Virus record (IMG/VR): IMGVR_UViG_3300049712_000011
Coordinates: 4,365-68,364 of that record
Strand: one strand, 5' to 3'
Length of the DNA stretch: 64,000 bases
DNA from: a virus
Taxonomy: Duplodnaviria > Caudoviricetes
Shown here: positions 1,155 to 62,204 of the stretch, piece after piece
Layout: each line of letters begins with the position of its first letter
How positions within the stretch are numbered: the stretch's first letter is position 1
Made by a program: the position numbers and the translations under genes
The notes under the pieces: model-generated
Databases searched by the model: none
What the model saw: only the letters and a program-made list of their open reading frames with translations
Told to the model about the DNA's origin: nothing

Positions 1155-2492
1155 ATGGTGTACACAAATTATCAACAACTCGAAGCTGGTTTCCTCAAAG
1201 AAGCTGCAGAACAGGGATGCGACGTTACGTTCCTAGAAGGCATGCTAAAGGAAGCCGCTGAAATCCAACATAAGTGGGCAGAAGCCTTTGATGAGCTTGA
1301 GCAAATTACAGGTGACAAGACAATCAAAATTAAGATTGGCAATGACCTGGCTCAAATCGCCTTAATGAAGATGGCAGAAGGCGAAAAAGGTTGGATGGAC
1401 AGTCCGATGGTCCAACAGTTACTTTCAAGTTTACAACAGGGCGGTGGACAAGGTGCTCTAGCTGGTGGAGCAGGCGGTGGCTTAATCGGGCTCATTTTAG
1501 GTTTGCTTACAAAGAATCCTATGATGGGTTTGATGTTAGGTGGTCTAGGTGGAGCAGGGTTAGGTGGTTTGGGTTGGAACCGTATTAAAGATTTCTTTGG
1601 AGGTAAGGGTAACGCTTCTCCAGATGGTTCAACCTCACCTGAAGAATCCCCGGAACTATCTCCTGAATTGGCCGGCGCACCATCCGATCCTTCACAGCTT
1701 CCTACTGAACACAATGACCCAGAAGCAGCTCTTCGCTCAGCCGCACAAGGTAGCCCAGAAATAGCTGGAGGTAATACTCCGCATGAAATGCCTGGAGAAC
1801 ATTCGGATCCTGAAGCTCAGATTGCTCAACAGTTGTCTGGAGTTAAGCCTCCACAACCAGGTCAGTCTTCACTAGAGCCACAAGGTCAGCAACCTTTAGG
1901 TGCTAACCCACAGCAGGCTATGATGGAACAGCCTTATCAAAAGGATGACTACGATGTGGCTGTAGATAAGTATATGCAGTGGATGCAAGAACAATACCCA
2001 CAGCAGCAAAGTCCTCGTCAAAGCTTTGTACAACAATTTAATCCAAGTGGACAAGGTGCTGGTAATGTAAATCAACCAATGGGTCAACGTCCTATGGTAC
2101 CTAAGCCTCAAGTACAGCCTCATGCTAATCCAACTCCTAATGCGGCACAGCAGGCTCCAATGAGTGGAGGTAAACCTCTAAACACTACTTTCCCGTCTAT
2201 TCCAATGAATAGCCACATGCCTCAAATCGGCAAGCCGGCTATGCCACCAGGTGGTGGTATGCTTCCAAAAACTGGCGGTCTACGACTTAAGTTAGCGGAT
2301 CTTATGAGCGGACCTTCTATGGCTCCACAAGGGCCTGCAAGTCCAAATCTAAATATGTTAATGGGTCCTGGTCAACCTACAACAACATCTCAGAATCCCA
2401 TGCTGCCTAAGGGTACTCCGATCGTTTATCCTGTAAACAACCAGCCACGTCAGATGACCAGCAACTATGCTGTAGCCCCTAAGACTTTCTAA
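1155..2492 (+). CDS. Gln/Pro-rich putative virion internal protein
   Basis: Gly-zipper hydrophobic helices, low-complexity Q/P tail, repeated K-x-A motifs, internal EHxDPEA repeat. Confidence 0.55.
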   Translation: MVYTNYQQLEAGFLKEAAEQGCDVTFLEGMLKEAAEIQHKWAEAFDELEQITGDKTIKIKIGNDLAQIALMKMAEGEKGWMDSPMVQQLLSSLQQGGGQGALAGGAGGGLIGLILGLLTKNPMMGLMLGGLGGAGLGGLGWNRIKDFFGGKGNASPDGSTSPEESPELSPELAGAPSDPSQLPTEHNDPEAALRSAAQGSPEIAGGNTPHEMPGEHSDPEAQIAQQLSGVKPPQPGQSSLEPQGQQPLGANPQQAMMEQPYQKDDYDVAVDKYMQWMQEQYPQQQSPRQSFVQQFNPSGQGAGNVNQPMGQRPMVPKPQVQPHANPTPNAAQQAPMSGGKPLNTTFPSIPMNSHMPQIGKPAMPPGGGMLPKTGGLRLKLADLMSGPSMAPQGPASPNLNMLMGPGQPTTTSQNPMLPKGTPIVYPVNNQPRQMTSNYAVAPKTF

Positions 2493-7948: not shown

Positions 7949-8149
7949 ATGGCAAAGATTCCAGAACAGCTTAATACACAGATTCGTGTATACAACCTCT
8001 ACTGTGAATTGATCCAAGAAGAGAAGGACAAGAAAGAGTACGCTAAGACTAAGGCAGAGAATATCAAGCGTATTAAGGAAGAGATTAAAGAGCTTATCGA
8101 GCAAGAGGCTGAGGAGAATGTGGTAGCCCAGAGGGAAGCAGGCGAGTAA
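7949..8149 (+). CDS. small charged coiled-coil protein
   Basis: 66 aa ORF, coupled to the previous gene. Confidence 0.65.
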   Translation: MAKIPEQLNTQIRVYNLYCELIQEEKDKKEYAKTKAENIKRIKEEIKELIEQEAEENVVAQREAGE

Positions 8150-8161
8150 TAGTTTGAGTAT

Positions 8162-8205
8162 AAAGGCCAGGTGGTGTATTTACGCTGCCTGGCCTTTGTG
8201 CTTTT
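8162..8205 (+). terminator. intrinsic terminator
   Basis: AAAGGCCAGGTGGTGTA/TACGCTGCCTGGCCTTT hairpin plus T-rich tail. Confidence 0.65.
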
Positions 8206-8211
8206 GATGTT

Positions 8212-8628
8212 ATGTTTACCTTAATGTATATTGCGGTTGGACTGACTGTAGCTTATCTCTTGGCAGTTTGGTATAAATCTGATGCGATAGTGGAGTACGG
8301 CCGGATGCTCCCACTTAGCTGGCAGGAAAAGCTTAAGATCAACGACTATGCTGCCCTATCGGTTGATGACCCGCAGATGACTTATGCCAAGTTTTTGAAC
8401 AGGTATGTAGCTGACAACTTCTTCACCAGGTTGTTAGAATGTGAAATCTGTTTATCGTTATGGCTATCCTTGTTTATCAATGTAGCTGTCTATTCTGCCA
8501 AATTCTTGTCAGGGCTGGACTTAGCTACCGCATTGTTGAGTATTGCGGGAGGAACGTTCCCTGCAGCAATGGCGGGCTTGATTATATATGCAGCTTGGCT
8601 TAAAGTAAGAGCAAATGGCACAGCTTAA
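8212..8628 (+). CDS. membrane protein, DUF1360-like
   Basis: Several TM helices and LLECEICLSLW (CxxCxSxW). Confidence 0.55.
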   Translation: MFTLMYIAVGLTVAYLLAVWYKSDAIVEYGRMLPLSWQEKLKINDYAALSVDDPQMTYAKFLNRYVADNFFTRLLECEICLSLWLSLFINVAVYSAKFLSGLDLATALLSIAGGTFPAAMAGLIIYAAWLKVRANGTA

Positions 8629-23294: not shown

Positions 23295-24344
23295 ATGAGA
23301 TTAAGTTTGGACCAAACGACAGATTACTCTTATCAAGAGACCAATCGCTACTTGCATGGTACCGCATTGCCTGATTTTGTCAAGCAAGCAGAGGCTATGA
23401 CTAAGGAAGCATCAGCCAGCTTGCCTTCAGAAGCTTTTGCCGATCGATACCATAGAGCTTTCCCTATTGATTCTGCTCCTAATGTGTACGTCAGTAACGC
23501 TTTTTTCATCAACAAGAAAGCTGCGCTAGAGGAACTCTGGGGTAAGAACTTCATCACTGAAGTCGAGGAAAGAATCAAGAAAGCTTCAGAAATTTTCGGT
23601 ATTCAAGAAGACATCACTCGTTACAACAGCGAGTTGAACGTCAAAGAAGCTACGGACTACTCAGAAGACTTTGTAGCCTCATTTAACGTAGGTGGACAAT
23701 CCTACGAGCTATTTCCATTTAAGACCGCTGCTGACCTGTTGAAACAGGCAGAGCAATTCAACAAGAACCTAAAAAACTATCCTTTCGGATGGCGCAAAAC
23801 AATCGCTGAGAACTTTGTAAAGAAAGCAGAAGAGCTAGGCGTTTCAGAACTACCTGATACGCTCTGTAAGTACGCCGGTCTATTCTACCCTGACACTCGA
23901 TTATTCGAGACTGAGCTTAAGCGTCGTATCAATAAGATTGCGAACGAGGAAGCTAAGAAGCGTTATGAAGACTGCCTATCTAAGGTAGCCTCCGCAACCT
24001 CCAGGGATGATTACTACAATGTTTGTGCAGAAGCTTACAACATAGAGAAGAATGCAGGAGTTTATGATAAGCCCGCTGTTTTCCAACAGCTTGGTGATAT
24101 TGTAGACAAGACGTTTACGCTTTCAGTTTACAAAGTTGCAGAAGAACTTCAGAACGTAGTTCATATGGCTGGTGACGTATTCTCCATTCCAGAGTTACAG
24201 AAGATTTCCAAAGACATCTACAAAGAAGCATTCGGCGTAGATATTGATCCTATGGATACTGGAACTCTCAGAGATACATTGCCGACCATGCCTCTTTCTG
24301 ACGTTGCATTGTTTAAAGAGCTGTCCGGGGTTAGACCACTCTAA
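23295..24344 (+). CDS. putative head/scaffold-like protein rich in K-x-A motifs
   Basis: About 13 K-x-A occurrences; ATG at 23295. Confidence 0.55.
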   Translation: MRLSLDQTTDYSYQETNRYLHGTALPDFVKQAEAMTKEASASLPSEAFADRYHRAFPIDSAPNVYVSNAFFINKKAALEELWGKNFITEVEERIKKASEIFGIQEDITRYNSELNVKEATDYSEDFVASFNVGGQSYELFPFKTAADLLKQAEQFNKNLKNYPFGWRKTIAENFVKKAEELGVSELPDTLCKYAGLFYPDTRLFETELKRRINKIANEEAKKRYEDCLSKVASATSRDDYYNVCAEAYNIEKNAGVYDKPAVFQQLGDIVDKTFTLSVYKVAEELQNVVHMAGDVFSIPELQKISKDIYKEAFGVDIDPMDTGTLRDTLPTMPLSDVALFKELSGVRPL

Positions 24345-24345
24345 C

Positions 24346-24561
24346 ATGACCATTACCGTAAGAACCGGATTCGATAAAACCAAACAAGTTGAAATTTACG
24401 AGACTGTAAAGCTCACAGCAAAGCAAGCCCAAGTCTTCATCCAGGAACAAGCCACTCGCTGGCCTTACGAGAAAGCCAAAGGTTTCTCCGACGTTTATGG
24501 ATCAAAGCGTTTGCCGGCTGTGGTTAAGAAGAAGTACAAGAAATGTACGAAACGCCGCTAA
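24346..24561 (+). CDS. small basic hypothetical protein
   Basis: MTITVRTGFDK...; ATG at 24346. Confidence 0.5.
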   Translation: MTITVRTGFDKTKQVEIYETVKLTAKQAQVFIQEQATRWPYEKAKGFSDVYGSKRLPAVVKKKYKKCTKRR

Positions 24562-25118
24562 CATTTTTACGCGACCAAAATGCTCCCGGTACCGTACTAC
24601 TCGCAGTGGCTCTAGCGAAGTACGGTACCGAATGTTTTAATTGGGAACCTGAACTGCTGCGTAAAGAGATTGAAGAGGACTTCAACATTGAAATGTCCGA
24701 TCTACAATCTGACAAGCTTCAGACCGCAATTCTAATTTACACAACCGACCAGTTCGAATCTAACTGGCATGCGTTTCACGTAGGTTGTCATTTGCTCAAT
24801 AACGAATACGCTGACCACGTGGTATTCGACCAGCCACTAGAGGCCGAATATATCATTGGCGCTTTACCTGAGATTAACTTTCTTCGTGCAGACGATGGAA
24901 TCAAGTTCTCGGATGAAGTCAATGCTTATGCAGGTCTAACCTTTGCAGAATATGGGTGTGCCAAGCCACCTACTTTGTTTCCTACAGCTATTATGCCGAA
25001 AGGTTTAGTAGATGCAGAGATGGCAGAGAAAAATGCAGCTCTGGACGAACTTTATCAAGCTAAGAAAGATTCACTTGATAAGTACCTCGCCAAGGTCCAG
25101 AAAGCTTACACAATTTAA
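24543..25118 (+). CDS. hypothetical protein, probably structural
   Basis: 191 aa ORF. Confidence 0.6.
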   Translation: MYETPLTFLRDQNAPGTVLLAVALAKYGTECFNWEPELLRKEIEEDFNIEMSDLQSDKLQTAILIYTTDQFESNWHAFHVGCHLLNNEYADHVVFDQPLEAEYIIGALPEINFLRADDGIKFSDEVNAYAGLTFAEYGCAKPPTLFPTAIMPKGLVDAEMAEKNAALDELYQAKKDSLDKYLAKVQKAYTI

Positions 25119-25235
25119 GCGTCGTTAGCTCAACGGTAGAGCACCTGCTTTCTAAGTAGGAGGTTGTGCGCTATTCATTGGAGGGCCTTTGAAGCTTTCC
25201 TTTCTCGCGAGGTTCGAATCCCACACGGCGCACCA
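25119..25235 (+). tRNA. trnR: tRNA-Arg(TCT) with a 42-nt insertion in the T-stem
   Basis: Acceptor GCGTCGT/ACGGCGC, D and anticodon arms, TTCGAAT loop, CCA; T-stem GTG|GG split by 25169-25210. Confidence 0.85.
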
Positions 25236-25240
25236 AATTT

Positions 25241-25373
25241 TCGAGTTAGGTATACGTGAAAGAAATTCCCAGGAAATGTGTCGTGAAGCTGTATGCGGCA
25301 GCCGCATAGCACGACCTCCACGCTTCCCGTGTGGTCCTAGCTAGATAGACCTGAGAGCCTCATTATAACTCGA
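25241..25373 (+). ncRNA. putative structured ncRNA
   Basis: Terminal stem TCGAGTTA/TAACTCGA, long internal hairpin (GTCGTG..TATGCGGC/GCCGCATA..ACGAC). Confidence 0.45.
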
Positions 25374-25377
25374 CGAC

Positions 25378-25533
25378 AGTCAACGTGATGGAAAGATTAG
25401 ACATAGGGGTGAAGCGGACGGTGTAGGACTATCAAGACCTCCTACTGATGCTGCTGTACTAGACGGGGAAGAACCGGTACACCTCAGGCTGAAACTTGAC
25501 AACCAGCCATGCAGGCCAATCCTGCCGTTGACT
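25378..25533 (+). ncRNA. class II (Leu-like) tRNA-like RNA with an expanded anticodon domain
   Basis: AGTCAACG/CGTTGACT, ATG..CAT D-arm, GGGGTG/CACCTC enclosing 68 nt, GGCTG/CAGCC arm, GCAGG/CCTGC T-arm. Confidence 0.55.
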
Positions 25534-25540
25534 AAATTTT

Positions 25541-25714
25541 ATGTCGGAAGAACAACAGAAGAAACCTCTAGTTAATGAGGATTGTCCTGGCTGCGGGGTG
25601 CAGCCTTACAAAGGGTATTGTGATAACTGTGAGTCGATGTTTTATGACACACGACACAAGTCATCATGCAACATGAAGTACTGGCTTTCTCTAGATTGCC
25701 TGTGTGAGTACTAA
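25541..25714 (+). CDS. small Cys-rich (Zn-finger) protein, 57 aa
   Basis: CPGC, CDNC, C..C.C; not in ORF track. Confidence 0.5.
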   Translation: MSEEQQKKPLVNEDCPGCGVQPYKGYCDNCESMFYDTRHKSSCNMKYWLSLDCLCEY

Positions 25715-27447
25715 TTGATTTCTTCCATCTTGTTATAGCTTGAGCTAAAGCAGTGGAAGTAAGGATCGCTACCCCAGACGTGAGCCTGGCAAGCGACCCA
25801 GCTAAGAGTATGGAAAAAGTCGTCCGGTTTATTATCAGGATGACAATACAGAATCTTAGCTTTCAAATTATCCTCTTTCACTTCTTTGAAGATACAGAGA
25901 ATATCACTCATGTGTTCCTTCATATCCTCCCAATCAGGAAATAGGATTTGACCTTTCTTGAGAAGGCGGAATGTAAATCCCATCGTGTCTGAGCGATGTA
26001 GACACCAGCGAGTTTGATGCCAGTCAGTTGCGTCTGGCGGCACTTCTGTATACTGAATGTATTTGCTATCTCGATAGGAAACTAACTGGGTAGCTTGTTT
26101 ATTGCAGTATGCGTTGTGGTAATTACCAAGCATCGCACCACGGATGGCGTCAGGTCCAGAGTCCGCGGCTACCATAACTTCCTTACCTGACATCTCACTA
26201 TATTTCCTTGCCACACTTGCTAACTCTTGAATATTGGCCTCGTAATTGACATCTTTGAAAATCTTAGACCAAAAGATCTCGATTATGCCATCGTCTCTCA
26301 CTCCGCCTAATGTACCTACCGTTCTTGAAGAGCTTGGGTTGATGCCCCAGTCAACTCCCATGAACAAACCACGGTATAAATGCTGACGTCGCTCAAAGAC
26401 CTTATTCATAGGACCTAGGATACACAATGCCTTGAGTTCCTGTTCAGTAATGTCTTTAGCGCCCTCATCATAAGGCAGACCGAGTACTTCGTTGTAGACC
26501 TGCAACATAGAGTATTCACGCTCGAAGCACTTCTGGTAAATATCTTTCCAGTCTTCCGGACTGGCATTGTAATACGGAATAAGCGGCTGAGCTAAGTGGA
26601 ATCCGATGATCTCTCGATCTCCTGGGTTTGCATCAACCCAGCATCCTTGAGAGGAGTCCAGAACCTTAGAACACTTTGAACATGAAAATCCATGTTTTTG
26701 AATCATCTTAATTGGATTGTTGTCCTCAGTTAGAGTGTTCCAGTGATTGCACCCAGTGCATTTCATGGCCCATTCCAGCTGGTTACCACGATTCCATAAA
26801 GCCGTAATTGTATTGTCGGTGGTTAGTGGCGTTCCTGCGAAAATTTCTCGCTTGATTTTGCTAATAGCCATCGTTTCCGCGATAATGGGCAGAATGTCTA
26901 ACAACATGTCCTGTACCTCGTCGTGGATGTTGTGGTCAGTTGCCGGACCACGTGTTCGAGTGGCATCATCACTAGCGTACTTAAGAATGACGTTACTATG
27001 AGTGTCTTCCAGTTCCTTTTCAAAGACATCGTTCTTTGACAAGCCGGATACAATGCGTTTAAGTGGAGGACTTTCGAATCGTGCTGCGAGGTAGTTATGA
27101 CTAAAATACTTCGTAAACTGTTCGTTAGGCCCTACATACATCATTTTGTAATCAGGATATCTAACCATGTTCAGTGTAATAATATTACTGATCAGGGTGG
27201 ACTTGAGCGTTTTACGACTACACTTCAGAAGTAACTTCTTTGGTAAATTATCATAAATTGGCCTCATCATAGGGAACTCCCTCAGAATTTGAGGGGCTCC
27301 TTCATTATTGTAGAGATAAAGCTCGACCAACTTGGACAGAGGACTGTTCGAGAAAAGCAACTGTCTTGCTCGGAATCGCTGCTTTTGATTTCTACTCTGG
27401 AAAAGTTCAGAGACTTTGGCTAGTATATCCATATGAGGTGTAATCAC
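25711..27447 (-). CDS. terL: terminase large subunit (GpA-like)
   Basis: Walker A-like SRKTLKS, HDEVQD, Zn-ribbon CTGC..CSKC, nuclease GVDWG and DDFFH. Confidence 0.82.
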   Translation of the reverse strand: MITPHMDILAKVSELFQSRNQKQRFRARQLLFSNSPLSKLVELYLYNNEGAPQILREFPMMRPIYDNLPKKLLLKCSRKTLKSTLISNIITLNMVRYPDYKMMYVGPNEQFTKYFSHNYLAARFESPPLKRIVSGLSKNDVFEKELEDTHSNVILKYASDDATRTRGPATDHNIHDEVQDMLLDILPIIAETMAISKIKREIFAGTPLTTDNTITALWNRGNQLEWAMKCTGCNHWNTLTEDNNPIKMIQKHGFSCSKCSKVLDSSQGCWVDANPGDREIIGFHLAQPLIPYYNASPEDWKDIYQKCFEREYSMLQVYNEVLGLPYDEGAKDITEQELKALCILGPMNKVFERRQHLYRGLFMGVDWGINPSSSRTVGTLGGVRDDGIIEIFWSKIFKDVNYEANIQELASVARKYSEMSGKEVMVAADSGPDAIRGAMLGNYHNAYCNKQATQLVSYRDSKYIQYTEVPPDATDWHQTRWCLHRSDTMGFTFRLLKKGQILFPDWEDMKEHMSDILCIFKEVKEDNLKAKILYCHPDNKPDDFFHTLSWVACQAHVWGSDPYFHCFSSSYNKMEEIN

Positions 27448-57257: not shown

Positions 57258-58136
57258 ATGGGATACCTACATATAGACAACCTTTACAAGAACCAAGATG
57301 TTCTCCTTTTCAAAGAGTGCTACGCTCTTGAGAAGATTCACGGCACTTCTGCTCATTTGATATGGCACTTTCAGGATGGTAAGATCACTTATTCTTCCGG
57401 TGGTGCAAGTCACACGAACTTCCTTAAGTTGTTTCAAGATGACCTGCTGAGCCAGGCATTCAAACAACTAGGTGTGCTTGACCGTAATGTAACAGTTTAC
57501 GGAGAAGCCTACGGTGGCAAAGAGCAGGGAATGAGCGCCACGTATGGTAAGGAAATGAAGTTCATTGTTTTCGATGTTCAAATCGGGGACAGCTGGCTTT
57601 CAGTACCTCAAGCCGAAGATGTAGCAAAGAAGCTCGGTCTCGAGTTTGTTTACTACGTTAAGATTCCTACCACATTAGAAGCTCTAGATAAGGAGAGGGA
57701 CGCAGAATCTCAACAAGCCATTCGTAATGGAATGGGTCCTGGTAAGGCTCGTGAGGGTGTCGTTCTCCGGCCTCTTATCGAGGTTATCAAGAACAATGGA
57801 GCCCGAGTACTTTCTAAGCACAAGGGTGATGCGTTCAAGGAAACTGCTACACCGCGGAAGGTAGTAGATCCAGCACAAATGCAAATATTAGCTGATGCCC
57901 AAGCTGTGGCTGATGAGTGGGTAACTCTCACACGCCTGGAGCATGTGCTACAAAAGATTCCAGACCATGGCATGGAAAAGATGCGGGACATCTTAGCGGC
58001 TATGGTAGCGGACGTGCTGCGAGAGGGTATAGGTGAAATTGTGCCCTCTACAGCAGTGGAGAAAGCTATTGCTGGTAAGACTGCTGTGATGTACAAGTCT
58101 TACTTGAAAGCTAAGCTTCAGGAAATTGCAGTTTAA
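57258..58136 (+). CDS. RNA ligase (Rnl2-like nucleotidyltransferase)
   Basis: Motif I LEKIHGTS, III VYGEAYG, IIIa FIVFDV, IV REGVVLRP, V SKHK. Confidence 0.85.
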   Translation: MGYLHIDNLYKNQDVLLFKECYALEKIHGTSAHLIWHFQDGKITYSSGGASHTNFLKLFQDDLLSQAFKQLGVLDRNVTVYGEAYGGKEQGMSATYGKEMKFIVFDVQIGDSWLSVPQAEDVAKKLGLEFVYYVKIPTTLEALDKERDAESQQAIRNGMGPGKAREGVVLRPLIEVIKNNGARVLSKHKGDAFKETATPRKVVDPAQMQILADAQAVADEWVTLTRLEHVLQKIPDHGMEKMRDILAAMVADVLREGIGEIVPSTAVEKAIAGKTAVMYKSYLKAKLQEIAV

Positions 58137-58381
58137 GCAAATCACACGCTGCCGATAAAGCTAAACAGGTAGAGGAAGTTCGCGACTCCAGAAACTCGTA
58201 ATGGGAGGGCTGCTGGGTAACACTGGCAGCCCGACTTACCATATGTCAGGAGCAACCCTAAAACGTCCCAGTGTGTGAGTTCCACGTTATGAGGACATGG
58301 TTGGGGCAGTGGCTATTAGCACGCCACCACGAAAGTGAGATAAATGTGTGATCACGACAGAATCGCGGCTACATGCTAAAC
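58131..58381 (+). ncRNA. rnpB: RNase P RNA, minimal (about 250 nt)
   Basis: GAGGAAGTTCGCGACTCC and AGATAAATG..ACAGAATCGCGGCT with P4 (bulged U), P1, P2, P5 (CTCC/GGAG), P6 (AACTC/GAGTT), GAGCAA. Confidence 0.88.
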
Positions 58382-58478
58382 AATAGGAGTAAGACAATAT
58401 GACACAGCTAAACGCAAGATAAAAGTACCTGACAAGGTACGAGAGGAATTCGAGTTCTTCCTAAATACAGATCTCGAC

Positions 58479-59711: not shown

Positions 59712-59770
59712 GGGCGCATAGCTCAAAGGTAGAGCCATATGAATTGAGGGTTCGAGTCCTTCTGCGTCCA
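59712..59770 (+). ncRNA. tRNA-Ala-like RNA lacking the anticodon arm
   Basis: GGGCGCA/TGCGTCC (G3:U70) and A73, full D- and T-arms, only 10 nt between them. Confidence 0.75.
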
Positions 59771-59986: not shown

Positions 59987-60120
59987 CTTGGGGCAGTGAC
60001 AGAAACGGTTACTTCTTATTGACAAAGACGGGGCTGGGTTCGAATCCCAGCGGCAACACAATATGTTGCTGTGGTGTAGCGGATAGCATCGAACACACTG
60101 TTTCAACTTTTCTCCCCAAG
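59987..60120 (+). ncRNA. circularly permuted tRNA-like RNA (YrlA/Y RNA-like topology)
   Basis: T-arm, then acceptor hairpin CGGCAAC/GTTGCTG, then D-arm; ends paired (CTTGGGG/CCCCAAG, GAAACGGT/ACTGTTTC). Confidence 0.7.
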
Positions 60121-60329: not shown

Positions 60330-60407
60330 GGGGGTTTAGCTCAGTTAGGTAGAGCAACACCCTTTAATAAGGTGTACGGGTCGGTGGTTCAAATCCATCA
60401 GCCCCCA
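60330..60407 (+). tRNA. tRNA-Ile-like with a 9-nt anticodon loop (CTTTAATAA), no encoded CCA
   Basis: Ile-type body; ACACC/GGTGT stem; enlarged loop and variable region. Confidence 0.65.
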
Positions 60408-62105: not shown

Positions 62106-62113
62106 ATTTAAGT

Positions 62114-62204
62114 GGGGACTGTTCCATGTGGCTGACTGTAAATCAGTTGTCTATAAATATACATGGCGGCTGACGAAGAGGTTCAACTCCTCCAGGCCCC
62201 ACCA
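62114..62204 (+). tRNA. trnY: atypical tRNA-Tyr(GTA): reduced D-arm, long variable arm, 8/4-like acceptor/T stems
   Basis: GCTGA-CTGTAAA-TCAGT, GAGG-TTCAACT-CCTC, A73, CCA. Confidence 0.7.

Follow-up and report, generated by a model that had tools for sequence, protein, structure and literature searches.

A 42-nt hairpin in the T stem of a tRNA-Arg(UCU) gene and an adjoining back-joined RNA in an uncultivated soil jumbo phage

The interrupted tRNA-Arg(UCU) gene

This report deals with a tRNA-Arg(UCU) gene (25119–25235, plus strand) that carries a 42-nt insert in its T stem, and with a back-joined RNA that originates from the segment next to it. Both are located in a 64,000-nt stretch of viral DNA (Duplodnaviria; Caudoviricetes), hereafter called the window, which comprises bases 4365–68364 of the 68-kb IMG/VR virus record IMGVR_UViG_3300049712_000011 and to which all coordinates refer unless another contig is named. 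CheckV gives the record a completeness of 33%, which implies a phage of approximately 200 kb, and terminase relatives at 60–80% identity sit on contigs of 215–236 kb. The window codes for a GpA-type large terminase, NAMPT, an AAA ATPase and an RNA ligase, and its tRNA island extends past the contig end. The runs in which the locus is found are soil and rhizosphere samples (approximately 16 runs contain at least half of the sampled words of a 1-kb query), and the source is an uncultivated soil/rhizosphere jumbo phage. The virus looks bacterial from its bacterial-type RNase P-like RNA, its T4-type ligase and its matches to PHROG families.

The gene is preceded on the same strand by an open reading frame (ORF) for 191 amino acids (24543–25118; function unassigned), the TAA stop codon of which abuts nt 1 of the tRNA. 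The 5′ exon (25119–25168, plus strand; tRNA nt 1–51) contains the 5′ strand of the acceptor stem, the D arm, the anticodon arm with the loop TTTCTAA, a 5-nt variable loop and the first 3 nt of the T stem (GTG). The 3′ exon (25211–25235, plus strand) contributes the last 2 nt of the 5′ strand of the T stem (GG), the T loop TTCGAAT, CCCAC, the 3′ strand of the acceptor stem, the discriminator A and an encoded CCA. The insert (25169–25210, plus strand) is thus positioned in the 5′ strand of the T stem, between tRNA nt 51 and 52.

Rfam family RF00005 matches 25119–25232 (plus strand) with 47.9 bits versus a gathering score of 29 and handles approximately 44 nt as insertion; the cloverleaf scores above the threshold by which membership of the tRNA family is judged. 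On the unspliced gene ARAGORN calls no tRNA; when 25169–25210 are removed, it calls a 75-nt tRNA-Arg(tct). Both results bear out an earlier note, made from the letters of the window alone, in which the gene had been described as a tRNA-Arg(UCU) that is restored to 75 nt by removal of a 42-nt T-stem insert. In the spliced form the acceptor stem has 7 bp, the D stem 4 bp, the anticodon stem 5 bp and the variable loop 5 nt; the T stem is GTGGG/CCCAC, and the minimum-energy fold is the cloverleaf. Only when exactly 25169–25210 are deleted does a tRNA of 75 nt result in which all five T-stem pairs are perfect and the variable loop has 5 nt, and the junction is fixed because the joined variable-loop/T-arm sequence is contiguous in ordinary tRNAs, namely in one distant relative and in one metagenome contig. 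The exons are without decay: all stems pair, and U8, G18 G19, U33, A37 and the T loop are present. For its arginine codons the phage uses AGA to 22% and AGG to 15% (37% together), and no other arginine tRNA is found within the 68-kb record.

The insert alone folds with −10.7 kcal/mol into a 3-bp CGC/GCG closing helix, a pyrimidine-rich 8 × 6 internal loop and a hairpin of 7 bp (loop CTTTGAA, 7 nt); a single A at the 3′ end stays unpaired. The computed fold agrees with the GGAGGGC/GCTTTCC hairpin and the CGC/GCG ends given in the earlier note. The insert's own helix closes precisely at both junctions, and when the cloverleaf is enforced on the pre-tRNA a three-way junction in the T stem is predicted (−33.2 kcal/mol versus −37.5 kcal/mol unconstrained). 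The 42-mer is present once in the window (0 expected by chance).

The insert is genuinely in the DNA and is not a misassembly, a possibility that the earlier note had raised, because a second assembly and a DNA run carry the identical sequence. The second record, a 2.8-kb contig from JGI sample 3300049071 (L014), is 100% identical over the end of the ORF, the tRNA, the insert and the intergenic region, and a 492-nt contig of DNA run X1, which may be the source sample, spans the insert with no differences and without any insert-less joint. Besides X1, the Logan contigs placed on 24700–25700 are from the metatranscriptome libraries X4, X15 and X17, which have three study codes, a common year and a common habitat and may be one campaign. 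An RNA contig of low depth leads from the 191-aa ORF into the first 27 nt of the tRNA, in keeping with co-transcription of the two. None of the RNA contigs of X4, X15 and X17 lies over 25146–25237, a gap that carries no weight for or against splicing of the insert. A promoter/terminator scan of 24300–25900 revealed nothing above chance, and the fold energies of the whole tRNA and of the intergenic region did not differ from those of shuffles.

The back-joined RNA and the candidate ligase

Beginning 3 nt after the CCA of the tRNA and finishing 8 nt before the ATG of a 57-aa ORF is a non-coding segment of 295 nt (25238–25532; the contigs do not give its strand, and its structure is read on the plus strand). 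In each of the libraries X4, X15 and X17 it is represented by a 325-nt contig (295 + 30 nt, a closed k-mer cycle) in which 25532 is joined back to 25238 with an ambiguity of 1 nt. The depth of the segment is 37, 146 and 111, as compared to 2–7 for the flanking genes (8- to 70-fold), and in DNA run X1 the back-joint is absent and there is no excess depth. The simplest reading of 25238–25532 is an RNA of high abundance that is either a 295-nt circle or a head-to-tail multimer. RNA from the segment adjoining the tRNA is thus shown to be cut and rejoined in vivo.

The predicted circular fold consists of two closed domains, the first closed by 25241–48/25366–73 and the second by an acceptor-like helix of 7 bp (25378–84/25527–33). 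In this fold U25238 replaces U25533 opposite A25378 and stacks on G25379–C25532, so that the ligation point would be a nick inside a helix. The cut sites, between AAA and UUUU and between GAC and UAAA, are AU-rich. In E. coli, RNase E-type AU-rich sites start the 3′ maturation of tRNAs, and presumably the upstream cut of the circle (between AAA and UUUU, 2 nt past the CCA) fits such sites. It was also observed that AAATTT flanks the segment on both sides and could pair in the precursor. The fold energy of the circle did not differ from that of shuffles; no Rfam match was obtained at E values up to 10, and no homologue in searches of IMG/VR and JGI metagenomes. A group I or group II intron is not indicated, since a terminal G, a GUGYG 5′ end and an Rfam match are all lacking. 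Nor is the segment an intron of the archaeal bulge-helix-bulge (BHB) type, since both cuts are on the 5′ side of the intervening 4-bp segment, opposite to the BHB polarity, or a guide for the pre-tRNA, the duplex energy being −79 kcal/mol versus −73.6 ± 5.4 kcal/mol for shuffles, which is no signal.

An enzyme that could join such ends is encoded at 57258–58136 (plus strand), where the earlier note had correctly placed an RNA ligase: the ORF matches PF09414. Its sole sequence match in the PDB is T4 Rnl2 (residues 194–308, which include part of the C-terminal domain), and the best Foldseek matches of its AlphaFold model (pLDDT 89) are 2hvr and 2hvq, i.e., full-length T4 Rnl2 on a nicked duplex (E 5.8e-13, approximately 325 columns). 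Both the nucleotidyltransferase domain and the Rnl2-type C-terminal domain, by which the Rnl2 family is defined, are found. By sequence and model the protein is an ATP-dependent RNA ligase of the Rnl2-like, nick-sealing type, and it is our candidate for the joining enzyme. Rnl2 enzymes seal 3′-OH/5′-phosphate nicks in duplex RNA. To our knowledge, no natural substrate of T4 Rnl2 has been established in twenty years, and we know of no report of tRNA splicing or RNA circularisation by a phage Rnl2.

Directly 3′ of the ligase gene there is a weak match to the bacterial class A RNase P RNA (58130–58386, plus strand; 34.3 bits, gathering score 100). It is a match to the full model (E 6e-8 in 9 kb) with large deletions, which include most of the specificity domain, and it is possibly a reduced phage RNase P-like ribozyme, for which the region is at present a candidate. 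In a related 380-kb phage contig (L029, 1–20888) the gene for the Rnl2-like ligase clusters with genes for Ro60 (TROVE), a T4 Rnl1-type ligase, a kinase-like ORF and Thg1, a cluster that looks like an RNA repair island. In the relatives reached via homologues of the ligase no tRNAs were found near the ligase genes.

The fate of the insert

We tentatively propose, at somewhat less than an even chance, that the insert is an intron-like element that is taken out by enzymes rather than by self-splicing, and that the resulting nick is then sealed by the phage ligase. A canonical tRNA-Arg(UCU) gene would have gained a precise, self-closing hairpin of 42 nt between nt 51 and 52. The CGC/GCG helix of the insert would branch off the T stem, bringing both junctions side by side at the three-way junction, and cuts at the base of the helix, between G51 and C1 and, past the unpaired A42, between A42 and G52, would set the hairpin free; the T-stem duplex, otherwise perfect, would then contain a nick, which the Rnl2-like ligase would seal. 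The leading candidates for the cutters would be an RNase P-type and an RNase Z-type activity, which leave 3′-OH/5′-phosphate ends as the ligase needs them; they are favoured because the geometry resembles a short acceptor-type helix plus discriminator. The joint of the circle and the putative splice joint of the tRNA both lie within predicted helices. Enzymatic splicing is the best-supported single reading because the adjacent RNA is rejoined at what is predicted to be a duplex nick and because a ligase of the nick-sealing type is encoded. That the insert is excised at all, by such cutters, and that the same ligase acts on it is what we infer.

There are a number of points that weigh against this proposal. 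The spliced junction 25168–25211 was present in no read or contig, no RNA contig spanning the tRNA. We know of no enzyme documented to excise a T-stem hairpin in bacteria or phages, and none that could cut the insert was identified in the 68-kb record. As the top half of a tRNA the insert is unconvincing, having a 3-bp helix, an 8 × 6 internal loop and no T-loop motif. Its sole likeness to an acceptor end is the closing helix with the unpaired A, and recognition by RNase P and RNase Z is speculative because of this poor resemblance. The circle is cut at AU-rich sites, whereas the junctions of the insert are GC-rich; the two events therefore need not share nucleases, and the circle could be made by the RtcB of the host rather than by the phage ligase. 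Position 20 of the D loop is a U and not A20, a main identity element for ArgRS in E. coli. Only a single sequence is at hand, with no covariation and no intron-less allele, and this phage family carries several tRNA-like genes that are non-decoding.

A more far-reaching scheme would combine the tRNA and the circle in one cut-and-rejoin pathway run by the phage: an RNase P-type activity (possibly the RNA of 58130–58386) and a 3′ endonuclease would excise stem hairpins and the Rnl2-like ligase would seal the ends, thereby maturing the tRNA-Arg(UCU), which could be used only after the phage had made these enzymes and would act as a timing switch for AGA/AGG-rich genes, and locking the 295-nt RNA into an exonuclease-proof circle. 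In its entirety this scheme must be considered doubtful.

The earlier note had left the choice between a spliced intron, a conditional switch and a functional mimic that is not spliced. Splicing is favoured by the circle, the Rnl2-like ligase and the location of both joints in helices, and the mimic by the non-decoding tRNA-like genes and by the fact that no cutter was identified. If the insert is retained, the gene would yield a 117-nt tRNA-like non-coding RNA that would not decode. Such an RNA could divert processing enzymes or tRNA-targeting nucleases as a decoy, or be a scaffold displaying the hairpin as a handle for proteins. On balance we regard retention as possible though unlikely. The genome also contains a 59-nt tRNA without anticodon arm, a permuted element and other odd tRNAs, at the syntenic site two relatives (L003 and L004) have tRNA-like genes to which large domains are added, the adjoining circle has a domain closed by a 7-bp acceptor-like helix, the related 380-kb phage has its Ro60 gene near the gene for the Rnl2-like ligase, and an excision route is not known. 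A mimic would, however, require neither a full canonical anticodon arm (UCU, U33, A37) nor exons that rejoin to a perfect T stem. None of the other tRNA-like genes of the window has a copy of the hairpin, and TROVE (Ro60, PF05731) has no match within the 68-kb record, which is 33% complete. It should also be considered that most tRNA-binding proteins read the stack of acceptor and T stem, as known from structures of tRNA with EF-Tu, and that this stack would be disturbed by a helix that leaves the T stem.

Less probable still is that the gene is a young pseudogene, recently inactivated by a piece of DNA that landed in the T stem, with decay yet to come. The cassette of tRNA, circle segment and 57-aa ORF is missing in six relatives, which points to a recent, lineage-specific acquisition, and no homologue of the insert was found in searches of IMG/VR and JGI metagenomes; all copies are identical, so there is no selection signal either way. 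Against inactivation speaks that the insert, which is unique in the window, has neither terminal repeats nor a target-site duplication, that random DNA rarely forms a helix closing exactly at both junctions, that there are zero mutations in the exons, and that DNA run X1 has the insert without difference and no insert-less joint.

Very unlikely is that the tRNA functions unspliced with the insert as an oversized variable arm, in which case the T stem would be GCG(A)GG/CCCAC and approximately 44 nt would project as in class II tRNAs. This is the register chosen by the tRNA model of Rfam, and variable arms generally point away from EF-Tu and the ribosome. But the T stem would then have a C-A mismatch and a bulged A, as compared to five perfect pairs when the other register is used, tRNA-Arg belongs to class I, and an arm of approximately 44 nt is twice as long as the longest natural variable arms; class II tRNAs have approximately 10–24 nt in this arm (positions 44–48).

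An archaeal-type intron that a splicing endonuclease cuts, or an RNA that splices or cleaves itself, can hardly be entertained, although T-arm introns are known in Archaea and nucleomorphs (PMC4090602): instead of two 3-nt bulges around a 4-bp helix at both junctions, a hand test with strict geometry gave a central helix GUUG/UCGC of 1 Watson-Crick pair, 2 wobbles and 1 mismatch, neither outer helix formed, tRNA_int_endo (PF01974) and RtcB (PF01139) had no match within the 68-kb record (approximately 33% of the genome), and the insert, with its 42 nt, is far below the size of group I introns, with no match to a ribozyme family at E values up to 1. The earlier note was correct in both respects, having considered the insert too short for a group I intron and having failed to fit a canonical BHB; at E values up to 1 there was no Rfam match for a group I intron in 25000–25400, and group I introns, which have a catalytic core P3–P9 and typically at least 200 nt, reside in tRNA genes in the anticodon loop rather than in the T stem. 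A tRNA-Gln(UUG) with the insert hairpin as anticodon arm was likewise rejected, since ARAGORN accepts it only when the native anticodon arm is deleted, and the D arm is then poor and the T stem mismatched.

Known systems, relatives and other tRNA-like genes

The tRNA introns of bacteria and phages known from textbooks are self-splicing group I introns in the anticodon loop. They have in common with the gene described here that a tRNA gene is interrupted in a bacterial or phage setting; they differ in having at least 200 nt and a conserved catalytic core, as compared to 42 nt, a T-stem location and no Rfam family. Since a 42-nt hairpin in the T stem cannot splice itself, use of this tRNA would imply that a bacterial virus has a route of enzymatic splicing that is as yet undescribed. 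A relative of the phage carries a group I intron, but in a protein-coding gene: in L005 (2195–2498, minus strand) and L006 (2208–2511, minus strand) a group I intron (76.7 bits) is found in the gene for the AAA ATPase, and the adjoining ORF has a faint match to LAGLIDADG.

The tRNAs of Lak megaphages carry introns that were called "enigmatic", one of which possibly itself encodes a tRNA (Devoto et al., 2019, PMC6784885). These are the only published parallel found in a full-text literature search, in which a mechanism for introns of this type was not found. In both cases small inserts that are not group I introns reside in tRNA genes of very large phages, and the splicing route is not known; the gene described here, in which removal of a non-group-I insert restores a canonical tRNA, belongs with the Lak type in this respect. 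A further likeness is that one of the Lak inserts itself looks tRNA-like, and that the insert described here, too, has a closing helix of its own and a single unpaired A after it. The Lak introns, however, were predicted with the eukaryote settings of tRNAscan. These settings look for introns in the anticodon loop, and the site here is in the T stem at 51/52. Also unlike in Lak phages, the insert is a simple hairpin that has neither a T-loop motif nor a CCA, the phage comes from soil, and related inserts that would form a family were not found. A tRNA- or minihelix-shaped insert in the anticodon loop is also not what is present: a T-loop motif, a 12-bp stack and a CCA are lacking, and the site is 51/52.

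In Archaea, T-arm introns are found at 53/54, 56/57 and 59/60, and they also occur in nucleomorphs (PMC4090602). Like the insert described here they are small and located outside the anticodon loop, including the T arm, and their removal depends on proteins and ligation, as is proposed here. They have a BHB cut by EndA/TSEN or are mechanistically unexplained, whereas here no BHB can be drawn and no such enzyme was found in the 68-kb record. The background on tRNA introns given in the earlier note agrees with this literature, but omits the precedent of the Lak megaphages. With respect to ligation, T4 Rnl2 and the kinetoplastid editing ligases are nick-sealing enzymes; the phage ligase has the Rnl2 fold by prediction, and both joints here would be duplex nicks. 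Archaeal Rnl3, which is ATP-dependent, circularises small RNAs into stable circles in vivo (PMC9014305).

It is the T-stem position together with the linked RNA circle that sets the locus apart. The locus offers two candidate substrates for an Rnl2, and one of them, the circle, can be seen in metatranscriptomes that are already public; an RNA circle that is DNA-encoded, abundant, not an intron and made during phage infection would itself be new. The phage may cut and rejoin RNA in a manner undescribed for bacterial viruses. If the cut-and-rejoin pathway were true, a phage Rnl2 would have its first natural substrates, and tRNA splicing that depends on proteins or RNase P would be known for the first time from a bacterial system. 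The phage is present in several public RNA libraries, the locus being found in six metatranscriptome runs (X4, X15 and X17–X20), so that the question is directly testable.

The search for intron-less alleles in relatives that the earlier note had recommended was run: neighbour-protein and DNA-pattern searches of IMG/VR, JGI metagenomes and cultured phages found no allele of the tRNA, be it interrupted or intact. Three sequences that match the 3′-junction pattern look like 3′ fragments of tRNAs that have no tRNA body before them, and one 18-mer match is due to chance. In all six fetched relatives (66–80% terminase identity) the tRNA cassette is missing. The tRNA, the 300-nt spacer and the 57-aa CxxC...CxxC ORF (25541–25714, plus strand; no family match), which is the last part, form a lineage-specific cassette at an insertion hot spot, because in the relatives L007, L018 and L019 the homologue of the 191-aa ORF directly abuts the terminase gene. 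In other lineages the syntenic site is filled differently. For example, L003 has at approximately 8045–8232 (minus strand) a tRNA-like gene that overlaps the stop codon of the upstream ORF and has a G3-U70 acceptor stem, a good T arm, 70–80 extra nt and no U33, and that is followed by a normal tRNA-Met. In L004 the tRNA-like gene at approximately 8350–8468 (minus strand) has perfect acceptor, D and T arms and approximately 60 nt in place of the anticodon arm.

Other unusual tRNAs and tRNA-like genes are found on the plus strand of the window. The one of 59 nt (59712–59770; 44.4 bits) has acceptor, D and T arms and only a few nt in place of the anticodon arm. A second (59987–60120) is by its order of arms circularly permuted: an unannotated, perfect T arm (CTGGG-TTCGAAT-CCCAG) is followed by a hairpin-closed acceptor stem and then by a D-arm-like segment, and the outer ends pair (CTTGGGG/CCCCAAG). 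The third (60330–60407) is called as tRNA-Ile(aat) and has an anticodon loop of 9 nt in the Rfam alignment. The fourth (62113–62201; 89 nt), which ARAGORN misses and which reaches only 26 bits against tRNA-Sec, has a long variable region and GTA (Tyr) in its anticodon loop. With the YrlA model only weak, tRNA-like matches were obtained. Finally, the metagenome contig L033 contains at 1418–1495 (minus strand) a tRNA of the amber-suppressor type (anticodon CTA), the T arm and acceptor 3′ strand of which are identical to those of the tRNA-Arg exons of the window.
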